A stretch of 61,228 nucleotides of DNA from Eubacteriales bacterium (GCA_050946195.1 JBMNUI010000003.1:1-61228); one strand, 5' to 3'. Shown: positions 4,123 to 37,331, numbered from the stretch's first letter. The notes: generated from the sequence alone by a model not told the origin. Translations and numbers: made by a program.

Positions 4123-5241
4123 ATGATTATTGCGCTTGAAGAAGCAAAATACAAACTTGAGGCGCTGCGCGACGAACTGAAGGAGCTCGGTTCGGCGCTG
4201 CGGGTTGACGATCTGAGGACCGAGGTCGCCGAGCTTGAGCAGGAGACGCTAAAGCAGGATTTCTGGGCGAGCAAGGAGAATTCCTCAAGCGTGCTGCGGG
4301 CAATAAAACAGAAAAAAGACCGGGTCGAGGGTTACGATTTACTATGCGCACGGCTTGAGGACGCTATTGCGCTCTGCGAGATGGCTATAGAGGAAAACGA
4401 CGAGAGCTCTGTGGAGGACGTGCTCGGGGAACTTCGCGCAATCGAGCGCGAGTGTGAACAGAAGCGGATTGAGGTGCTCCTCTCGGGCGAATACGACAAG
4501 AACAACGCCATAGTCTCCTTCCACCCGGGCGCCGGCGGCACCGAGGCACAGGACTGGGCGCAGATGCTCTACCGGATGATCTGCCGCTGGACCGAGCGCC
4601 ACAATTACAAGGTCAAGCTCACCGACTGGCTGGACGGCGAGGAGGCCGGGCTCAAGAGTGCGACTATTGTGGTCGAAGGGCCTAATGCATACGGGTATTT
4701 GAAAAGCGAGCACGGTATTCACAGACTGGTCAGGGTCTCGCCCTTCGATGCCTCGGGCCGCAGGCATACCTCGTTTGCCTCGATTGAGGTAATCCCTGAA
4801 TTTGAAGAGCTTGACGAGATTGTCATACGCGACGAGGACATTGATTTTGAAACCTACCACTCGAGCGGCGCCGGCGGGCAGAATGTCAATAAGGTCAGCT
4901 CGGCAGTCCGGATAACTCATATCCCTACCGGAATTGTCGTCACCTGTCAGACCGAGCGGTCGCAGCTTCAGAACAGGGAAACCGCGCTGCGGATGCTCAA
5001 GGCAAGGCTGATGGAAATTAAGATACGCGAGCGGCTTGAGACAATCGAGGATATCCGCGGCGTCAAGACCAACATCGAATGGGGCAACCAGATACGCTCA
5101 TATGTATTTATGCCCTACACGCTGGTCAAGGATACACGCACCGGTTATGAGGACGCTGATATAAACGCAGTAATGGACGGCGAAATAGACGGCTTTATCA
5201 ACGCTTATCTGAAAATGATTGTAAAACAAAACGAAAAATAG
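4123..5241 (+). CDS. prfB: Peptide chain release factor 2 (single uninterrupted ORF)
   Basis: RF2-specific SPF (RVSPFDASGRRHTSF) and GGQ (SGAGGQNVNKVSSAVRITHIPTG) motifs. Full length, 372 aa. Confidence 0.92.
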   Translation: MIIALEEAKYKLEALRDELKELGSALRVDDLRTEVAELEQETLKQDFWASKENSSSVLRAIKQKKDRVEGYDLLCARLEDAIALCEMAIEENDESSVEDVLGELRAIERECEQKRIEVLLSGEYDKNNAIVSFHPGAGGTEAQDWAQMLYRMICRWTERHNYKVKLTDWLDGEEAGLKSATIVVEGPNAYGYLKSEHGIHRLVRVSPFDASGRRHTSFASIEVIPEFEELDEIVIRDEDIDFETYHSSGAGGQNVNKVSSAVRITHIPTGIVVTCQTERSQLQNRETALRMLKARLMEIKIRERLETIEDIRGVKTNIEWGNQIRSYVFMPYTLVKDTRTGYEDADINAVMDGEIDGFINAYLKMIVKQNEK

Positions 5242-5251
5242 CACAATGAAT

Positions 5252-5287
5252 CAGCCGCCGGCGGGATGTAAAACCCGCCGGCGGCTG
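5252..5287. terminator. GC-rich hairpin between convergent prfB and the acyl-CoA ligase gene
   Basis: CAGCCGCCGGCGGG-atgtaaaa-CCCGCCGGCGGCTG. No clear U-tract on either side. Confidence 0.45.
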
Positions 5288-5317
5288 AACAGTCAGCTTC
5301 GGTTTCAGCTATTCAAA

Positions 5318-5366
5318 GGCTTTGAAAGTTTTTGAAGGGGGCCGGGGGATACTTTTTCCCCCGGCG
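5318..5366 (+). repeat. Intergenic repeat family, copy A (internally deleted)
   Basis: GGCTTTGAAAGTTTTTGAAG followed by the GC hairpin GGGGCCGGGGG...CCCCCGG. Matches the 5' and 3' modules of copies B-E and lacks the middle hairpin. Confidence 0.55.
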
Positions 5367-5373
5367 TTCCTTT

Positions 5374-7011
5374 TCATTCAAGCTCAATCTGCGTAGCGAC
5401 AATTCTCTTGCCGCAGTATTTTTCGCGCAGTCTGGGCTTTTCTATTTTCCCGGTCGGGTTGCGCGGAATCTTATCAAAGATTATCTTTCTCGGGCGCTTG
5501 TATCTCGGCAGTCTGAGGCAGAACTTGTTCAGCTCGGCTTCTGTAAGACTGCACCCCGGCTTTGCCTCGACAATTGCCGCGGCAATCTCGCCCAGCCTGT
5601 GGTCGGGCAGCCCGATTACCGCCACATCCTTGACGGCGTCATGCCTGCGGATGTAGTTTTCGATTTCAACCGGGTAGATATTCTCGCCCCCCGTGATAAT
5701 GACGTCTTTCTTGCGGTCGACAAGGAATATAAAGCCGTCCTCGTCCTCGAAGGCCATGTCCCCGGTCAGCAGCCAGCCGTCCTTCAGCACCTCGTCGGTG
5801 GCGGCCTGATTCTTGTAGTAGCAGACCATGACCCCCGGGCCCTTCACGCAGAGCTCGCCGATTTCCCCCCGCGGCAGGGTGTTGCCGTTGCTGTCGATGA
5901 TTTTTGTCTCCCAGCCGTACCCGGCTTTGCCTATCGCACCGACCTTGTGGATGTTCTCGATTCCCAGATGTACGCAGCCCGGTCCGGTGGACTCCGAGAG
6001 GCCGTAATTCGTGTCGTAATCGTGGCTCGGGAAATGCCGCTTCCAGCGCTTTATAAGTGAAGGCGGCACCGGCTGGGCGCCGATGTGCATCAGGCGCCAC
6101 TGGGCGAGGGTGTAGTCCTCAAGATTTATCTGCCCGCTCTCGATGCTGTCGAGTATGTCCTGCGCCCAGGGTACAAGCAGCCAGACGATGGTGCACCTCT
6201 CCTCGGAAACCGTGCGGATAATCCACTCGGGCTTGACACCTTTGAGGAGCACCGTGCGCCCGCCGACAAGCAGGTTGCCGAACCAGTGCATTTTGGCGCC
6301 GGTATGGTAGAGCGGCGGGATGCATAGGAAAACATCCTCGTGTGTCTGGCCGTGGTGCGCCTGCTCTGTGAGGCAGGCATGCATCAGCGCCCGGTGGGTG
6401 TGAAGTATGGCCTTTGGGAATCCGGTTGTCCCTGAGGAAAAATATATCGCCGCCAAGTTGTCGTCCGAGAGCTTTATGTCGGGTGCGCGGGAGGTCGTGT
6501 AGGTGATGAGCTTGTTGTAGCTCTCGGCGAAGGTCGGGCAGTCGTCGCCGACATAAAAGCGGTATTTCACGCGCGTCAGGCAGTCGAAGATCTGCTCGAC
6601 TCGCCCGACAAACTCGGGACCGAAGACCAGTACGTCGACGTCGGCAAGTTCGGCGCAGTATTTGATTTCCTCGGCGGTATAGCGGAAGTTCATCGGCACG
6701 GCGAGCGCACCTGTCTTGAGAATCCCGAAATAGATAGGCAGCCACTCAAGGCAGTTCATGAGCAGAATTGCTACCTTGTCGCCTTTTTTTATTCCGCGCG
6801 AGAGCAAAAGATTTGCAAAGCGGTTTGCCCGCTGCTCAAATTCCCCCCAGGTAAGCTCGGTGCGGAAGGGGCGGTAGAAACTCGCTTCAATCAGCGAATA
6901 TTCCTTCCATGTCACCTGTTTTTCCTCGGGCAGCGCGGGGTTTATCTCGACAATCGCCACCTCATCGCGGTAGAGCGCAGCATTCTGCGCCAAGAGTTCG
7001 GTAATAGGCAT
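5374..7011 (-). CDS. AMP-forming acyl-CoA synthetase/ligase (class I adenylate-forming enzyme), substrate unknown
   Basis: Motifs YFSSGTTGFPKAI, TGDMAFEDEDGFIFLVDRKKDVIITGGENIYP, PRNPTGKIEK. RBS GGAAGGA. Only 19 nt after the symporter stop. Confidence 0.9.
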   Translation of the reverse strand: MPITELLAQNAALYRDEVAIVEINPALPEEKQVTWKEYSLIEASFYRPFRTELTWGEFEQRANRFANLLLSRGIKKGDKVAILLMNCLEWLPIYFGILKTGALAVPMNFRYTAEEIKYCAELADVDVLVFGPEFVGRVEQIFDCLTRVKYRFYVGDDCPTFAESYNKLITYTTSRAPDIKLSDDNLAAIYFSSGTTGFPKAILHTHRALMHACLTEQAHHGQTHEDVFLCIPPLYHTGAKMHWFGNLLVGGRTVLLKGVKPEWIIRTVSEERCTIVWLLVPWAQDILDSIESGQINLEDYTLAQWRLMHIGAQPVPPSLIKRWKRHFPSHDYDTNYGLSESTGPGCVHLGIENIHKVGAIGKAGYGWETKIIDSNGNTLPRGEIGELCVKGPGVMVCYYKNQAATDEVLKDGWLLTGDMAFEDEDGFIFLVDRKKDVIITGGENIYPVEIENYIRRHDAVKDVAVIGLPDHRLGEIAAAIVEAKPGCSLTEAELNKFCLRLPRYKRPRKIIFDKIPRNPTGKIEKPRLREKYCGKRIVATQIELE

Positions 7012-7030
7012 TTTTTTATCCTTCCTTGGC

Positions 7031-8581
7031 TTATGTGTTGATTTTTACAGCTTTTTCTTTACTCCCATATCCCGCAAAGGCCGACTCGACCACCGCCTTG
7101 TCGGGTGCCCTGGTCAGAAGGCTCACTATCGGCACGATTAAGAGGCCGGCAAGCATGGCAAACACGCCGCAGTTAATGGGAGACCTGAGCAGGGCCGGGA
7201 AATGGTTCCTGAAAAGCATGTTCAGCACCATAATACCGACCGCAAACCCGAAGGATGCCCATGCGGCGGCCTTGGTTGTACGCTTCCAGTAGAGGCAGTA
7301 GAGGAAGGGTGCCAGAAACGCGCCGGCGAGCGCTCCCCAGGAAATTCCCATGAGCTGAGCTATGTACTCGTAATTATACTTATACTGAAGAATGGCTATT
7401 GCGGCCGACAACGAAATGAAGACGACTATCAGCAGGCGCATGATGCCTATCTGCTGCCGCTCGCTCATGCGCTTTATCAGGTTGCCCCTGATAAGGTCGA
7501 TGGTCACGGTCGAGCTCGAGGCCATTACAAGAGACGAGAGGGTCGACATCGAGGCAGAGAGCACAAGAATCACCACAACGCCGATAAGCACCGGGCTGAA
7601 GTTGCTGAGCATTGTCGGAACAATCGAATCGAATCCTGAGACCGGGTTGCCGTCGGGACCGACCTCGATATCAAACAGGCGCCCGAAGCCGCCGAGGAAA
7701 TAGCAGCCGCCGGCAACAAAAAGGGCAAATACAGTCGAGATGACCGCCCCTCTTTTTATGGCGCCCTCATCCCTTATCGAGTAGAATTTGTTGACCATCT
7801 GGGGCAGCCCCCAGGTGCCGAGCGAGGTCAGAAGGACGACAAAAAGCAGCGTTTTGGGATCGGGCCCGAATACCGACGCAAAGGCCCCAGGCCCGGCGCC
7901 TTCGACAGAGATTTCAGACATCTTTGAGACCGCCTCGACAAGCCCTCCTTGGGACTTGAGCACCGCAGAAACAACCGCGATAATGCCCCCCAGCATGATT
8001 GTTGCCTGTATCGAATCGTTGATAACCTGCGCCATATACCCGCCGAGCACCACATACACGCAGGTGAGGGCCGACATGAGGATAATGCACCAGACATAGT
8101 CGATGCCGAAGGCCATGCCGAACAGGCGTGACAGGCCGTTGTAAAGCGAGGCGGAATAGGGAATCAGGAAAATAAATACTATTATCGACGCCCCGATTTT
8201 AAGGCCTTTGCTCGCAAGACGCTTGCCGAAAAATTCGGGCATCGTTCTTGAGTCAAGCAGCTGGGTCATAATGCGGGTCCTGCGGCCGAGGATCATCCAG
8301 GCAAGCAGCGAGCCGATAATGGCGTTTCCGATCCCAATCCAGACCGCAGATAGTCCGAATCTCCACCCGAACTGTCCGGCATAACCCACAAAGATAACCG
8401 CCGAAAAATAGGTCGTACCGTATGACAGAGCGGTAAGCCAGGGGCCGACCGCTCGCCCGCCCAGCACAAAACTGTTGACATTAACCGAATGGCGGCGGCA
8501 ACGTACGCCGACATAGACCATGACGGCAAAGAACACCACCACCATCGAGATTTTGACAAGCATTGCAAGTTGGTCTGACAT
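7031..8581 (-). CDS. Sodium:solute symporter (SSS family) permease
   Basis: ORF 7031..8668. Multi-TM protein with the SSS-like motif GGRAVGPWLTALSYGTTYFSAVIFVGYAGQFG. Start set at the ATG at 8581 (MSDQLAM), preceded by GAAAGGAAGGA. The longer ORF would run into the T-box terminator. Confidence 0.85.
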   Translation of the reverse strand: MSDQLAMLVKISMVVVFFAVMVYVGVRCRRHSVNVNSFVLGGRAVGPWLTALSYGTTYFSAVIFVGYAGQFGWRFGLSAVWIGIGNAIIGSLLAWMILGRRTRIMTQLLDSRTMPEFFGKRLASKGLKIGASIIVFIFLIPYSASLYNGLSRLFGMAFGIDYVWCIILMSALTCVYVVLGGYMAQVINDSIQATIMLGGIIAVVSAVLKSQGGLVEAVSKMSEISVEGAGPGAFASVFGPDPKTLLFVVLLTSLGTWGLPQMVNKFYSIRDEGAIKRGAVISTVFALFVAGGCYFLGGFGRLFDIEVGPDGNPVSGFDSIVPTMLSNFSPVLIGVVVILVLSASMSTLSSLVMASSSTVTIDLIRGNLIKRMSERQQIGIMRLLIVVFISLSAAIAILQYKYNYEYIAQLMGISWGALAGAFLAPFLYCLYWKRTTKAAAWASFGFAVGIMVLNMLFRNHFPALLRSPINCGVFAMLAGLLIVPIVSLLTRAPDKAVVESAFAGYGSKEKAVKINT

Positions 8582-8599
8582 CGCTATCCTTCCTTTCAG

Positions 8600-8932
8600 G
8601 CTTTGGCGTCGGAGGACCATAAAAAAAGTCCTCCGTATCGCTTGATACAGAGGACGACACAAAAGCAAAGTGCCGTGTTACCACCTCAATTCGCTGCAGT
8701 CTCGCGGCTGCAACCTCGCCGGGTACGTGAACCACAGTTCATTATACCCCTCCGCGCTAACGGGCGGTCCCGTCGCACCCTACTGATACCCCGGGGCTCT
8801 GCCCGGGTACTTTCAGGCCGCTGCTCTCGGGATGTATTCAGTCAGCCTGTCCCTGCCGCCTCGCACCACCCGGCGGCTCTCTGCCCCGGACCAGGGCTGA
8901 CTTACTTCTTCCCGGTCATCGCATTTAATTTG
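8600..8932 (-). promoter_or_regulatory. T-box riboswitch leader, specifier UAC (Tyr)
   Basis: Minus strand reads TGCGATGA (GA/K-turn), AGTA box, CAGAGAG (AG bulge) and GGTGGTGCGA (distal loop). Specifier loop is TGAA-TAC-A, with the codon at 8836..8834. T-box sequence is AATTGAGGTGGTAACACGG (8691..8673), followed by a terminator. Confidence 0.85.
8621..8655 (-). terminator. T-box attenuator terminator
   Basis: Minus strand reads GTCCTCTGTATC-AAGC-GATACGGAGGAC (12 bp including one G-U) followed by TTTTTTT, about 40 nt before the symporter ATG. Confidence 0.85.
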
Positions 8933-8938
8933 GCATAC

Positions 8939-8967
8939 ATTATATCATCAGTCAAAGCACTTGTCAA
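8939..8967 (-). promoter_or_regulatory. Sigma-A promoter of the T-box operon
   Basis: Minus strand reads TTGACA, a 17-nt spacer, then TATAAT, immediately upstream of the T-box 5' end. Confidence 0.75.
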
Positions 8968-9081: not shown

Positions 9082-9110
9082 TTGACAACCCGGCAATTTC
9101 GGGCTATAAT
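9082..9110 (+). promoter_or_regulatory. Sigma-A promoter of the tRNA gene
   Basis: TTGACA, a 17-nt spacer, then TATAAT, 18 nt before the tRNA 5' end. Confidence 0.8.
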
Positions 9111-9128: not shown

Positions 9129-9205
9129 GGGCCATTAGCTCAGTTGGTCAGAGCTACCGGCTCATAACCGGTTGGTCCGGGGTTCGAGTCCCTGATGGCC
9201 CACCA
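9129..9205 (+). tRNA. tRNA with CAT anticodon, probably tRNA-Ile2 (lysidine type) rather than elongator or initiator Met
   Basis: Cloverleaf GGGCCAT/ATGGCCC acceptor, anticodon arm ACCGG-CTCATAA-CCGGT, TTCGAGT T-loop, encoded CCA. The GGCTCATAACC anticodon arm, TGGTC variable loop and G1-C72 pair resemble tRNA-Ile(CAU) as I recall it. The initiator C1:A72 mismatch is absent. Confidence 0.9.
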
Positions 9206-9212
9206 TGAAAAA

Positions 9213-9245
9213 AGCCTTTATTCATAAAGAGATAAGGGCTTTTTT
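9213..9245 (+). terminator. Rho-independent terminator after the tRNA
   Basis: AGCCTTTAT...ATAAGGGCT stem followed by TTTTT. Confidence 0.7.
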
Positions 9246-12111: not shown

Positions 12112-12816
12112 TTAATCAAGAATTTCGCCTTCGGTTGAGAGGGTGACCACCTGCCAGGGGATGAATTTGCCGCTCCGGCGAAGGGCAGCTTTTGCGGCCT
12201 CCTCGATACCACCGCAGCAGGGCACTTCCATCCGCACGATGGTAAGGCTCTTTATATTGTTGTTTTTTAGGATCTCGGTCAGCTTTTCGGAGTAGTCCAC
12301 CATATCGAGTTTCGGGCAGCCGATTATGGTTATTCTGTTGCGCATGAAGTCGGAATGGAAGCTCCCGTGGGCATAGGCCGCGCAGTCGGCGGCAATGAGC
12401 AGGTTCGCACCGTCAAAATACGGAGCGTTGACCGGCACCAGTTTTATCTGCACCGGCCACTGTGCCAGCATGCTGGGGCGGGGCGCTGTCTCGTGCGGTT
12501 CTTTGTCGGGCTGATTTCTTATTATCTGCCTTGACCGCGTCCCGGGGCAGCCGCAGGGCAGGGTGTTGTCTGCCTTTTTGCTCTGCTTGTTTGCAAGAAC
12601 GGCGGCTTCGTCGAAGGGTACCGCTTCGCGCTCGACAATGCTGATAGCGTCGGTCGGGCAGGCCGGCAGGCAGTTGCCCAGCCCGTCGCAGTAATCGTCG
12701 CGGAGCAGCTTGGCTTTGCCGTCCACAAGGCCGATTGCCCCCTCGTGGCAGGCCGTAACACAGGCACCGCAGCCGTTGCACTTCTCCTCGTCGATCTGAA
12801 TTATCTTTCTTTTCAT
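12112..12816 (-). CDS. 4Fe-4S dicluster ferredoxin-domain protein with a C-terminal Cys-containing domain
   Basis: Cluster motifs CNGCGACVTAC and CDGLGNCLPACP. C-terminal VRMEVPCCGGIEEA. Divergent from a Crp/Fnr regulator gene. Confidence 0.8.
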   Translation of the reverse strand: MKRKIIQIDEEKCNGCGACVTACHEGAIGLVDGKAKLLRDDYCDGLGNCLPACPTDAISIVEREAVPFDEAAVLANKQSKKADNTLPCGCPGTRSRQIIRNQPDKEPHETAPRPSMLAQWPVQIKLVPVNAPYFDGANLLIAADCAAYAHGSFHSDFMRNRITIIGCPKLDMVDYSEKLTEILKNNNIKSLTIVRMEVPCCGGIEEAAKAALRRSGKFIPWQVVTLSTEGEILD

Positions 12817-12843
12817 ATTTTGTATTCTCCTTCTTTCGGACTA

Positions 12844-12872
12844 TTGACTTTCCGGTCATATTATAATATAAT
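12844..12872 (+). promoter_or_regulatory. Sigma-A promoter of the Crp/Fnr gene, with TGAC-N6-GTCA dyad over the -35
   Basis: TTGACT, a 17-nt spacer, then TATAAT. The dyad TGACTTTCCGGTCA lies at 12845..12858. Confidence 0.55.
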
Positions 12873-37242: not shown

Positions 37243-37331
37243 GGAGGAATAGCGAAGTGGTCATAACGCGGCGGTCTTGAAAACCGTTTGAGAGCAATCT
37301 CACGGGGGTTCGAATCCCTCTTCCTCCGCCA
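37243..37331 (+). tRNA. tRNA-Ser (TGA anticodon)
   Basis: GGAGGAA/TTCCTCC acceptor, anticodon loop CT-TGA-AA, long variable arm TGAGAGCAATCTCACG, GGTTCGAATCC T-loop, encoded CCA. Confidence 0.93.

Follow-up and report, generated by a model that had tools for sequence, protein, structure and literature searches.

The window (the whole stretch of DNA that was analysed, 61,228 nucleotides or 61 kb) carries on its minus strand a T-box leader followed by two genes, one for an SSS-family Na+/solute symporter (516 aa, 7031..8581) and one for a class I adenylate-forming (ANL) acyl-CoA ligase of 545 aa (5374..7011), here called lig545. A sigma-70 type promoter lies at 8939..8967 (minus strand). It is the consensus promoter named in the original prediction and matches at all 12 positions, with the -35 element TTGACA at 8967..8962, the -10 element TATAAT at 8944..8939, and a 17-nt spacer with a TG extension between them. 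The symporter begins at the ATG at 8581, the start named in the original prediction, which is preceded by the ribosome binding site GGAAGGA. A mechanical ORF list places a TTG start at 8668, inside the terminator, and the ATG is the credible start. The symporter stop and the ligase ATG are 19 nt apart, with a ribosome binding site inside the gap, and a scan of this interval found no promoter-like or terminator-like site on the minus strand. The proposed co-transcription of the two genes is thus consistent with the absence of any predicted boundary between them. By sequence and terminator scan, the operon ends at 5251..5365 (minus strand), where a hairpin directly past the ligase stop (5365..5341) is followed by a strong 15-bp hairpin (5288..5251), which is shared with the convergent gene at 4123..5241 on the plus strand.

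The leader (8647..8928, minus strand) is a full-length match to the T-box family RF00230 in cmscan, at 102.0 bits where the gathering score is 93 (E = 2.2e-21). The match spans model positions 1-219 and is not truncated; it includes Stem I, the Stem II region, Stem III, and the antiterminator. With a profile built from homologous leaders, nhmmer gives 185.8 bits. The T-box elements recognized earlier from the sequence are all present on the minus strand: the K-turn UGCGAUGA (8923..8916), AGUA (8906..8903), the AG bulge AGAGA (8882..8878), and the distal loop GGUGGUGCGA (8870..8861). The K-turn, the AGUA/S-turn specifier loop, the AG bulge, and the distal loop of Stem I align to the RF00230 model, and among 31 leaders 15 of the 16 pairs in the Stem I helices have compensatory changes. 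The T-box sequence AAUUGAGGUGGUAACACGG (8673..8691, minus strand) contains the UGGU bulge at 8683..8680 and is placed by the sequence, the cmscan antiterminator alignment, and the fold.

At the 3' end of the specifier loop lies the tyrosine codon UAC (8836..8834), followed by the conserved purine A (8833), both on the minus strand. In the cmscan alignment UAC-A falls on the specifier and purine positions, and in the minimum free energy fold GAAUACA is unpaired and adjoins a CGGGA/UCCCG helix. The triplet is invariant in homologous T-boxes from other genomes (65 of 65 unique sequences). A helix that begins one nucleotide past UAC-R covaries among the leaders: pair 18:103 is GC in 17, AU in 10, GU in 3, and UA in 1, and pair 19:102 is AU in 20 and GC in 9. 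Because this covarying helix comes right after UAC-R, it fixes the reading frame of the specifier, and UAC sits in the frame preferred under the TBDB rule (PMC7778990). The assignment to tRNA-Tyr proposed from the codon and the purine is therefore borne out by alignment, homologues, and covariation. The UGGU bulge would pair with A73, the discriminator base that bacterial tRNA-Tyr usually has (Grundy 1994, cited in PMC7778990). A search of the window and of 60 loci turned up no tRNA-Tyr gene.

An intrinsic terminator occupies 8621..8655 (minus strand), found by both the terminator scan and the fold. Its stem (8655..8628) has the 12 pairs read earlier, one of them G-U, closed by an AAGC loop and followed by U7 at 8627..8621. 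The 5' arm of the terminator shares sequence with the antiterminator's 3' strand; in the fold the T-box bulge of the antiterminator is 7 nt. The two structures are thus mutually exclusive, with -20.2 kcal/mol for the terminator hairpin and -12.6 kcal/mol for the weaker antiterminator.

The symporter matches PF00474 (SSF) with 179 bits over residues 38-442, the whole transmembrane core, and has about 12-13 hydrophobic segments in a crude scan. It falls below every NCBIfam cut-off. The nearest two curated families are PutP (192 vs 515) and PanF (156 vs 328), and not the carboxylate carriers ActP (40-44 bits against cut-offs of 750-1099) and MctC (64 bits); the sss superfamily model gives 161 against a cut-off of 184. 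By these scores the protein is a distinct SSS subfamily (TC 2.A.21). lig545 has the domains PF00501 (252 bits) and PF13193 (49 bits) and the ANL motifs A3, A5, A7, and A8 together with the A10 lysine (SSGTTGFPK at residue 192, YGLSE at 336, TGD at 416, DRKKD at 432, and PRNPTGK at 516-522). It lies below the cut-off of all 25 NCBIfam families listed, the best being PRK06187 (421 vs 476 bits), and reaches no curated cut-off of FadD, MenE, PaaK, 4CL, or other named acyl-CoA ligase families. Public names of its homologues are generic. The family is about 70% identical across at least 599 species genomes.

Many genomes have the symporter and the ligase paired behind a Tyr T-box. At 80 genome loci the recurrent neighbours of lig545 are the symporter (23), IorA (16), IorB (13), and a PaaK-like ligase (7), the last accompanied by an ACT protein, and no others recur. 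The full layout in relatives is T-box(Tyr)-sym-lig-iorA-iorB-paaK-ACT, and sym-lig-iorA-iorB(-paaK) is found behind at least 14 unique leaders. IorA and IorB in the same operon as lig545 pass NCBIfam equivalog cut-offs at several of these loci (L004, L083, L167, and others); at L004, for example, IorA scores 736 against 651 (TIGR03336) and IorB 286 against 230 (NF005325). At L083 the Tyr T-box is followed by lig545, iorA, and iorB, with a gap of 20 nt, and a second ligase is absent. A Tyr T-box also stands straight before the ligase alone at five loci (L007, L008, L032, L064, and L068), and leaders of the lig545 family have only the Tyr specifier. The closest relatives of the present operon (L154, L086, and L001) have sym-lig only, and the 61-kb window contains no IOR or POR homologue. 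The expected link to IOR is therefore seen directly after the ligase in operons of relatives but not in the window.

4-Hydroxyphenylacetate is a product of tyrosine fermentation and is abundant in the gut, the rumen, and digesters. The leader is best read as a T-box riboswitch for tRNA-Tyr that acts by transcription attenuation over a two-gene operon, and it is on balance probable that this operon helps restore tyrosine supply through uptake and CoA activation of 4-hydroxyphenylacetate. Starting from the consensus promoter, transcription would stop ahead of the symporter as long as most tRNA-Tyr is charged, with the 12-bp/U7 terminator formed. Once uncharged tRNA-Tyr builds up, its GUA anticodon would pair with the Stem I specifier UAC and its free ACCA end with the UGGU bulge, which would stabilise the weaker antiterminator and allow RNA polymerase to read through. 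The symporter would then import 4-hydroxyphenylacetate, most likely its substrate (tyrosine being the alternative), and lig545, as a putative 4-hydroxyphenylacetate (arylacetate)-CoA ligase, would use ATP to turn it into 4-hydroxyphenylacetyl-CoA. Reductive carboxylation by IOR would give 4-hydroxyphenylpyruvate, and an aminotransferase would give tyrosine. In this organism IOR would be encoded elsewhere, or another 2-oxoacid:ferredoxin oxidoreductase would perform that step.

AMP-forming ligases favour thioester formation, and induction of a T-box on tyrosine shortage argues for the direction of synthesis. All computational checks suggested with the original prediction favoured it. Its bolder idea, uptake and CoA activation of 4-hydroxyphenylacetate, gains from the presence of IorAB in the operons of relatives; iorA and iorB after the ligase are the strongest available support for its reductive carboxylation. 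The IOR and AMP-forming arylacetate-CoA ligase of Bacteroides have been proposed to work in biosynthesis (PMC13285125), and in Methanococcus maripaludis aryl acids are precursors of aromatic amino acids via IOR, according to work cited in PMC4162585. Against this reading stand the lack of an IOR or POR homologue in the window and of IOR genes beside sym-lig in the closest relatives, the symporters alone behind Tyr T-boxes, PutP and PanF as the symporter's nearest curated families, and the best matches of the ligase to fatty-acyl-CoA ligases. Many full operons also include a PaaK-type ligase, and a Burkholderia PaaK can produce 4-hydroxyphenylacetyl-CoA in vitro (PMC13285125), so lig545 could be redundant or act on another acid, and its specific job is one that we infer.

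The most serious alternative, though a rather unlikely one, is that the symporter is a Na+/tyrosine importer, while the ligase separately activates 4-hydroxyphenylacetate that enters otherwise and the leader is common to both for regulatory economy. The symporter stands alone behind 25 unique Tyr T-boxes, with unrelated genes downstream and no conserved partner, and so might import tyrosine itself, in line with the plainer reading of the original prediction, an uptake system induced by tyrosine starvation. Its nearest curated family, PutP, is that of a proline symporter, and as a rule a transporter under T-box control has as its substrate the amino acid named by the specifier (Wels et al., PMC2494555). 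The second-nearest family, PanF, however, carries a carboxylate anion. Against tyrosine, too, the symporter occurs within iorA-iorB-paaK-ACT-sym operons that have neither T-box nor lig545 (L116 and L119), and its adjacency to lig545 at 23 of the 80 ligase loci is found in both gene orders. At three loci (L183, L184, and L188) a distant SSS paralogue (40% identical) takes its operon position. In the symporter family tree, members with only a T-box interleave with those linked to the ligase or IOR.

It is improbable that lig545 activates some other 4-hydroxyphenyl acid on a route to tyrosine without IOR, e.g., 3-(4-hydroxyphenyl)propionate, 4-coumarate, 4-hydroxyphenyllactate, or 4-hydroxybenzoate, leaving the PaaK-type enzyme as the true arylacetate ligase. 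PaaK-like ligases are present in many of the same operons. Feruloyl-CoA synthetase and 4-coumarate-CoA ligases are among the solved relatives of lig545, and at two loci (L009 and L063) the symporter and ligase genes are separated by an Amidohydro_2 gene. At loci with iorAB such as L083, L169, L171, L210, and L216, however, PaaK is absent nearby and lig545 is the sole candidate supplier of the IOR substrate, and no dehydratase, hydratase, or reductase recurs beside the ligase at the 80 loci.

It is very improbable that the operon serves catabolism or has nothing to do with tyrosine supply, with the ligase run in reverse in tyrosine fermentation or serving fatty-acid uptake and activation and the T-box incidental. 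In favour of this reading, the best sequence matches of the ligase are fatty-acyl-CoA ligases, IOR is oxidative in amino-acid fermenters (PMC13285125), and a lig545 family member is found in a Smithella relative. AMP-forming ligases can also work backwards in syntrophs. But a T-box activates on uncharged cognate tRNA, and a tyrosine catabolic operon would need the opposite response. Moreover, each of the 65 leaders is specific for Tyr, including those directly before the ligase alone, and fermentative clusters employ Pta/kinase or ADP-forming ligases.

The riboswitch itself is ordinary, but its specificity is a strong functional label. It links two widespread unnamed protein families, the ligase and the SSS subfamily, to tyrosine supply. 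Where these genes stand in one operon with IorAB, the arrangement points to the route that starts from aryl acids and uses reductive carboxylation. This route has reportedly been recognized physiologically in rumen bacteria since the 1960s, through Allison's work, and to our knowledge it is known genetically in a methanogen only. We found no published description of a Tyr T-box-symporter-ligase regulon in the literature. lig545 and the SSS symporter could be the dedicated genes, missing until now, with which bacteria make tyrosine from 4-hydroxyphenylacetate that they scavenge, through ferredoxin-dependent reductive carboxylation and under induction by a tRNA-Tyr riboswitch, a possibility that we hold tentatively at somewhat short of an even chance. 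If so, many gut, rumen, and digester Clostridia would turn the end product of their neighbours' tyrosine fermentation back into tyrosine, and the ligase, with its 70% identity between phyla, would be the sign of a cross-feeding module that has spread horizontally. Predictions of amino-acid auxotrophy in gut and rumen Clostridia would have to be revised, and 4-hydroxyphenylacetate, the precursor of p-cresol, would have an added sink. Induction by uncharged tRNA-Tyr would also provide independent regulatory evidence for the biosynthetic direction of IOR in these bacteria, a question raised again for Bacteroides in 2026 (PMC13285125).

The leader resembles the tyrS T-box of Bacillus subtilis in its RF00230 architecture, UAC with a purine, UGGU bulge that would match A73, and terminator/antiterminator logic with uncharged tRNA-Tyr as the signal. 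The cargo differs. Here it is an SSS symporter and an acyl-CoA ligase (joined in relatives by IorAB, PaaK, and an ACT protein) and includes no tRNA synthetase, shikimate-pathway gene, or classical amino-acid permease, and the host belongs to an uncultured clostridial lineage of the gut or of digesters. A comparable Tyr T-box, that of the NhaC-family gene BA4353, likewise lies directly upstream of a secondary transporter whose substrate is predicted from the specifier (Wels et al. 2008, PMC2494555). The transporter families in that study (ABC, APC, DAACS, LIVCS, MFS, NHAC, and NSS) do not include SSS, and its text and supplements make no mention of a CoA ligase or IOR (PMC2494555). As with the clusters of iorAB and a PaaK-type AMP-forming arylacetate-CoA ligase in Methanococcus maripaludis and in Bacteroides (PMC13285125), the proposed pathway would take an aryl acid to its CoA thioester and on through reductive carboxylation by IOR and transamination to the aromatic amino acid. 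The operons of relatives contain the same IorA/IorB family, often with PaaK and an ACT protein. Unlike those clusters, they have an extra unrelated FadD-like ligase of 545 aa in front and a dedicated SSS importer, and a tyrosine-specific riboswitch controls all of these genes together; the window holds importer and ligase only. In Escherichia coli acs-actP, and with the SSS phenylacetate permease of Pseudomonas putida, a carboxylate importer of the SSS family is paired with an AMP-forming ligase that traps the acid as its CoA thioester. The present operon shows the same genetic pairing of an SSS importer with an AMP-forming ligase. In contrast to acs-actP, its symporter is closer to PutP and PanF than to ActP and its ligase is no orthologue of Acs or PaaK, and in place of the catabolic regulators of both systems it relies on tRNA sensing.

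The minus strand of the window carries a perfect consensus sigma-70 promoter (TTGACA-17-TATAAT, extended by a TG, 8967..8939). Downstream come a leader of some 310 nt and then the ATG of the symporter (8581). Rfam cmscan identifies the leader as a T-box (RF00230, 8647..8928, minus strand; 102 bits against a gathering score of 93, E = 2.2e-21). The match spans all 219 model positions and is the sole cis-regulatory Rfam match in the 61 kb. Promoter and riboswitch are as originally predicted, with every named element present on the minus strand: the K-turn (UGCGAUGA), the AGUA box, the AGAGA bulge, the distal loop (GGUGGUGCGA), the specifier loop (GAA-UAC-A), and the T-box sequence (AAUUGAGGUGGUAACACGG). 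A terminator follows, with a 12-bp stem (one G-U pair), the loop AAGC, and U7. Folding predicts both of the expected alternatives: the terminator hairpin at -20.2 kcal/mol and, in a transcript ending before the terminator 3' arm, the antiterminator GAGG[UGGUAAC bulge]ACGGCAC...GUGUCGUCCUC at -12.6 kcal/mol. They have the GUCCUC strand in common, and the predicted layout is the classical T-box arrangement. Because the antiterminator is the weaker of the two, uncharged tRNA would be required for it to win.

In the cmscan alignment, UAC-A falls on the specifier and purine columns. As ACA, AAU, and CAU overlap UAC, the reading frame needed testing. Homologous leaders were gathered from species-representative genomes in three scans, with the ligase, the symporter, and IorA of indolepyruvate:ferredoxin oxidoreductase (IOR) as the respective queries, and then by a profile search, which found 65 unique leaders. 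When 21 leader-bearing loci were checked with Rfam, 19 exceeded the RF00230 gathering score. UAC is at the specifier position in all 65 leaders, and the base 3' of it is A or G (C in a few). RNAalifold of a 31-sequence Stem I alignment starts the lower helix exactly 1 nt 3' of UAC-R. Compensatory changes are found in 15 of the 16 predicted Stem I pairs, with pair 18:103 being GC 17, AU 10, GU 3, and UA 1 times and pair 19:102 being AU 20 and GC 9 times. By the TBDB rule, a specifier preferably occupies positions 2-4 counted from the loop's 3' end (PMC7778990), and the covarying helix therefore places UAC in that frame. One leader (L135) has an additional U between GAA and UAC, and its UAC-G still adjoins the helix. 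The UGGU bulge, found in 59 of the 65 leaders (all those with a legible T-box core motif), would pair with A73, the usual discriminator base of bacterial tRNA-Tyr. No tRNA-Tyr gene for a check of the discriminator was found in the window or in 60 loci. The frames ACA (Thr), AAU (Asn), and CAU (His) are rejected by the covariation of the helix, the L135 insertion, and the fit of UGGU to A73. The leader can thus be assigned with very high confidence to the tRNA-Tyr T-boxes, as had been proposed, and it is virtually certain that a Tyr T-box attenuator controls the symporter-ligase operon.

The symporter (516 aa, SSF domain, 7031..8581, minus strand) and the ligase (545 aa, 5374..7011, minus strand) are separated by 19 nt including the RBS. 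No promoter-like or terminator-like site was found between them in a scan of the minus strand, and the bicistronic operon inferred earlier stands. Two hairpins (5365..5251, minus strand) end the operon, facing a convergent gene. The neighborhood was compared through a 95% identical relative; by synteny the convergent gene encodes a peptide chain release factor, and the remaining neighbors are housekeeping genes. Back-to-back with the T-box promoter is a second perfect promoter (TTGACA-17-TATAAT, 9082..9110, plus strand), which drives a tRNA-Met(CAU) gene (9129..9205, plus strand) followed by a 15-bp terminator (9208..9245, plus strand). The same tRNA-Met(CAU) is beside the operon in L081, the 95% identical relative. 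The window also has a tRNA-Ser(UGA) gene (37243..37331, plus strand).

The symporter scores below all curated NCBIfam cut-offs (nearest are PutP, 192 bits, and PanF, 156) and by these scores is distant from ActP and MctC. The only related solved structure is SGLT1, with weak scores. With PF00501 and PF13193 domains and complete core motifs, including the A10 lysine, the ligase belongs to the class I adenylate-forming enzymes. Its best family is PRK06187 (421 bits, under the cut-off of 476), its closest solved structures are FadD5, FadD13, feruloyl-CoA synthetase, and 4-coumarate ligases, and its homologues have only generic names in public databases. Fold matches could not settle the substrate of either protein, since both the ANL and the LeuT-like fold vary too little.

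Relatives of the ligase exist in at least 599 loci of species-representative genomes. The best 80 of these are 68-83% identical and come from gut, rumen, and digester Clostridia as well as Lentisphaeria, Planctomycetes, and Smithella MAGs. When every ORF up to three genes away from the ligase was clustered in these 80 loci, just four families recurred: the window-type symporter (23 loci, in either gene order), a ~577-aa protein that is IorA (16 loci), a ~187-aa protein that is IorB (13 loci), and a ~435-aa PaaK-like protein (7 loci). In locus L004, IorA (736 bits; TIGR03336 cut-off 651) and IorB (286 bits; NF005325 cut-off 230) both exceed their family thresholds. The PaaK-like protein scores 547 bits, under the cut-off of 646. 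An ACT-pair protein is encoded after the PaaK-like gene (paaK). Among the matches listed in the IorA-centered scan, the clade nearest that of L004 usually has the ligase upstream, and less similar iorA genes (62-65% identical) lack both the ligase and a T-box.

The gene orders after the 65 leaders (some of these orders are truncated at contig ends) are sym alone (25 leaders), sym-lig-iorA-iorB-paaK (10), sym-lig (6), lig-sym (5), lig-iorA-iorB, lig-iorA-iorB-paaK, and lig alone (4 each), sym-lig-iorA-iorB (3), lig-iorA (2), and sym-lig-iorA and lig-sym-iorA-iorB-paaK (1 each). Tyr leader, symporter, ligase, and IorAB are recurrently coupled, and symporter-ligase pairs recur behind T-boxes in many genomes. 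In locus L083, a T-box precedes lig-iorA-iorB with 20-nt spacing and no further ligase gene was found nearby, so that IOR there has no other candidate source of its substrate than this ligase.

The sequence data support a salvage route. Upon tyrosine shortage, 4-hydroxyphenylacetate would be imported and converted to its CoA thioester, which IOR may reductively carboxylate with reduced ferredoxin and CO2 to 4-hydroxyphenylpyruvate; transamination would then yield tyrosine. As a whole, we consider this mechanism moderately probable. A T-box induces its genes when the cognate tRNA is uncharged, and AMP-forming ligases favor thioester synthesis; both point to the biosynthetic direction. The argument from thioester synthesis was made for a Bacteroides IOR acting with an AMP-forming arylacetate-CoA ligase (Jiang et al., PMC13285125). 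The aryl-acid pathway of Methanococcus maripaludis, as cited in PMC4162585, and rumen synthesis of phenylalanine from phenylacetate (PMC7356843) are consistent with this direction. The ACT-pair protein beside PaaK would fit feedback control of a biosynthetic route. Tyr leaders are the only ones to which the ligase family is tied, which argues for a 4-hydroxyphenyl substrate over arylacetates in general.

By the usual rule for T-box transporters (PMC2494555), the symporter would instead carry tyrosine itself. The 25 leaders that control the symporter alone favor such a role, and no conserved partner of these symporters was found; their neighbors include F420-ligase-like, pseudouridine synthase, MatE, esterase, and glutamate synthase genes. 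In a neighbor-joining tree of 121 symporters, the T-box-only symporters are at four places among ligase- or IOR-linked clades, and the window symporter is in a T-box-plus-ligase clade, sister to the full-operon clade. In two loci the symporter lies within iorA-iorB-paaK-ACT-sym operons that have neither T-box nor ligase, and in three others its position is held by an SSS paralogue with 40% identity. We regard tyrosine transport as possible, with a probability of about a quarter. A further alternative, which we think doubtful, is that the ligase acts on a different 4-hydroxyphenyl acid: many operons also contain PaaK-type ligases, and one such enzyme forms 4-hydroxyphenylacetyl-CoA in vitro (PMC13285125). 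A catabolic or fatty-acid role is very improbable, being at odds with both T-box logic and the uniform Tyr specificity of the leaders.

For 4-hydroxyphenylacetate salvage, the expected oxidoreductase is present in relatives, where iorAB lies beside the ligase, but not in the window, where tblastn with IorA, IorB, and PaaK to E = 1 found no IOR/POR homologue and only a 23-residue ferredoxin-like fragment. Since the window and its three closest relatives have sym-lig only, the partner is putative for this lineage. The nearest relatives' assemblies (JAAYHB01, DURE01, and CAZMZJ01) are not among the best 80 IorA matches listed from species genomes. In MAG RUG12270, sym-lig and iorAB are on different contigs. 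A VOR-like hydroxyphenylpyruvate:ferredoxin oxidoreductase of the HpdDEFG type (PMC13285125) could stand in for IOR in the window lineage.

Other loci add further observations. Ligases ~70% identical to that of the window also occur in rumen, gut, and digester MAGs of Lentisphaeria/Victivallales, Planctomycetes, and Smithella, where they lack both a T-box and conserved neighbors; identity this high between different phyla suggests that a niche-specific function has spread horizontally. Amidohydro_2 genes (263-283 aa), of a family that includes reversible decarboxylases of hydroxyaromatic acids, lie between symporter and ligase in L009 (5208..5999) and beside the ligase in L063 (6367..7218). 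L009, a gut Clostridia MAG locus, also has an OLE RNA (RF01071, 487 bits, 12214..12849) ~1 kb downstream of its T-box(Tyr)-sym-lig-iorAB-paaK operon. Eight Spirochaetia-labelled rumen MAGs have a Tyr T-box before the symporter (RF00230 scores of 120.9 bits in L143 and 110.8 bits in L149). To our knowledge, reports of spirochaete T-boxes are unusual, and the explanation is either horizontal transfer or mis-binning.

In L040 (1969..4817), just upstream of a ligase gene without a T-box, another T-box (105.8 bits) has a loop reading CUC-A, hence Leu. The gene behind it encodes an 840-aa protein in which a xylose-isomerase-like TIM barrel (AP_endonuc_2) is fused to an AMP-binding ligase, which suggests that T-box control of acid-activating ligases extends beyond tyrosine. 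In L006 (6200..8067), the Tyr operon is followed by a second T-box-like leader (below the gathering score, specifier AUC or UUC). The gene after this leader, an HTH_19-Cupin_2-AMP-binding fusion that runs off the contig, was found in L006 only. In L185 (9412..10949), paaK is followed by a weak T-box-like match that scores 29 bits against the Tyr leader profile and includes a GC-rich hairpin and a U-run; this match precedes a 429-aa protein without a Pfam match.

The T-box surveys covered here name aminoacyl-tRNA synthetases, biosynthetic genes, and transporters of the ABC, APC, DAACS, LIVCS, MFS, NHAC, and NSS families. SSS transporters are absent from the families named, and CoA ligases and IOR from the text and supplements. 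No paper combining 'T-box riboswitch' with 'indolepyruvate' was found in the literature searched; the two main T-box reviews of 2008-2009 lay outside it, so an earlier mention is possible. As a T-box the riboswitch is ordinary for RF00230; what sets it apart is the cargo. We see here a standard T-box that has been recruited to a proposed module for aryl-acid salvage with a previously unassigned ligase and symporter.
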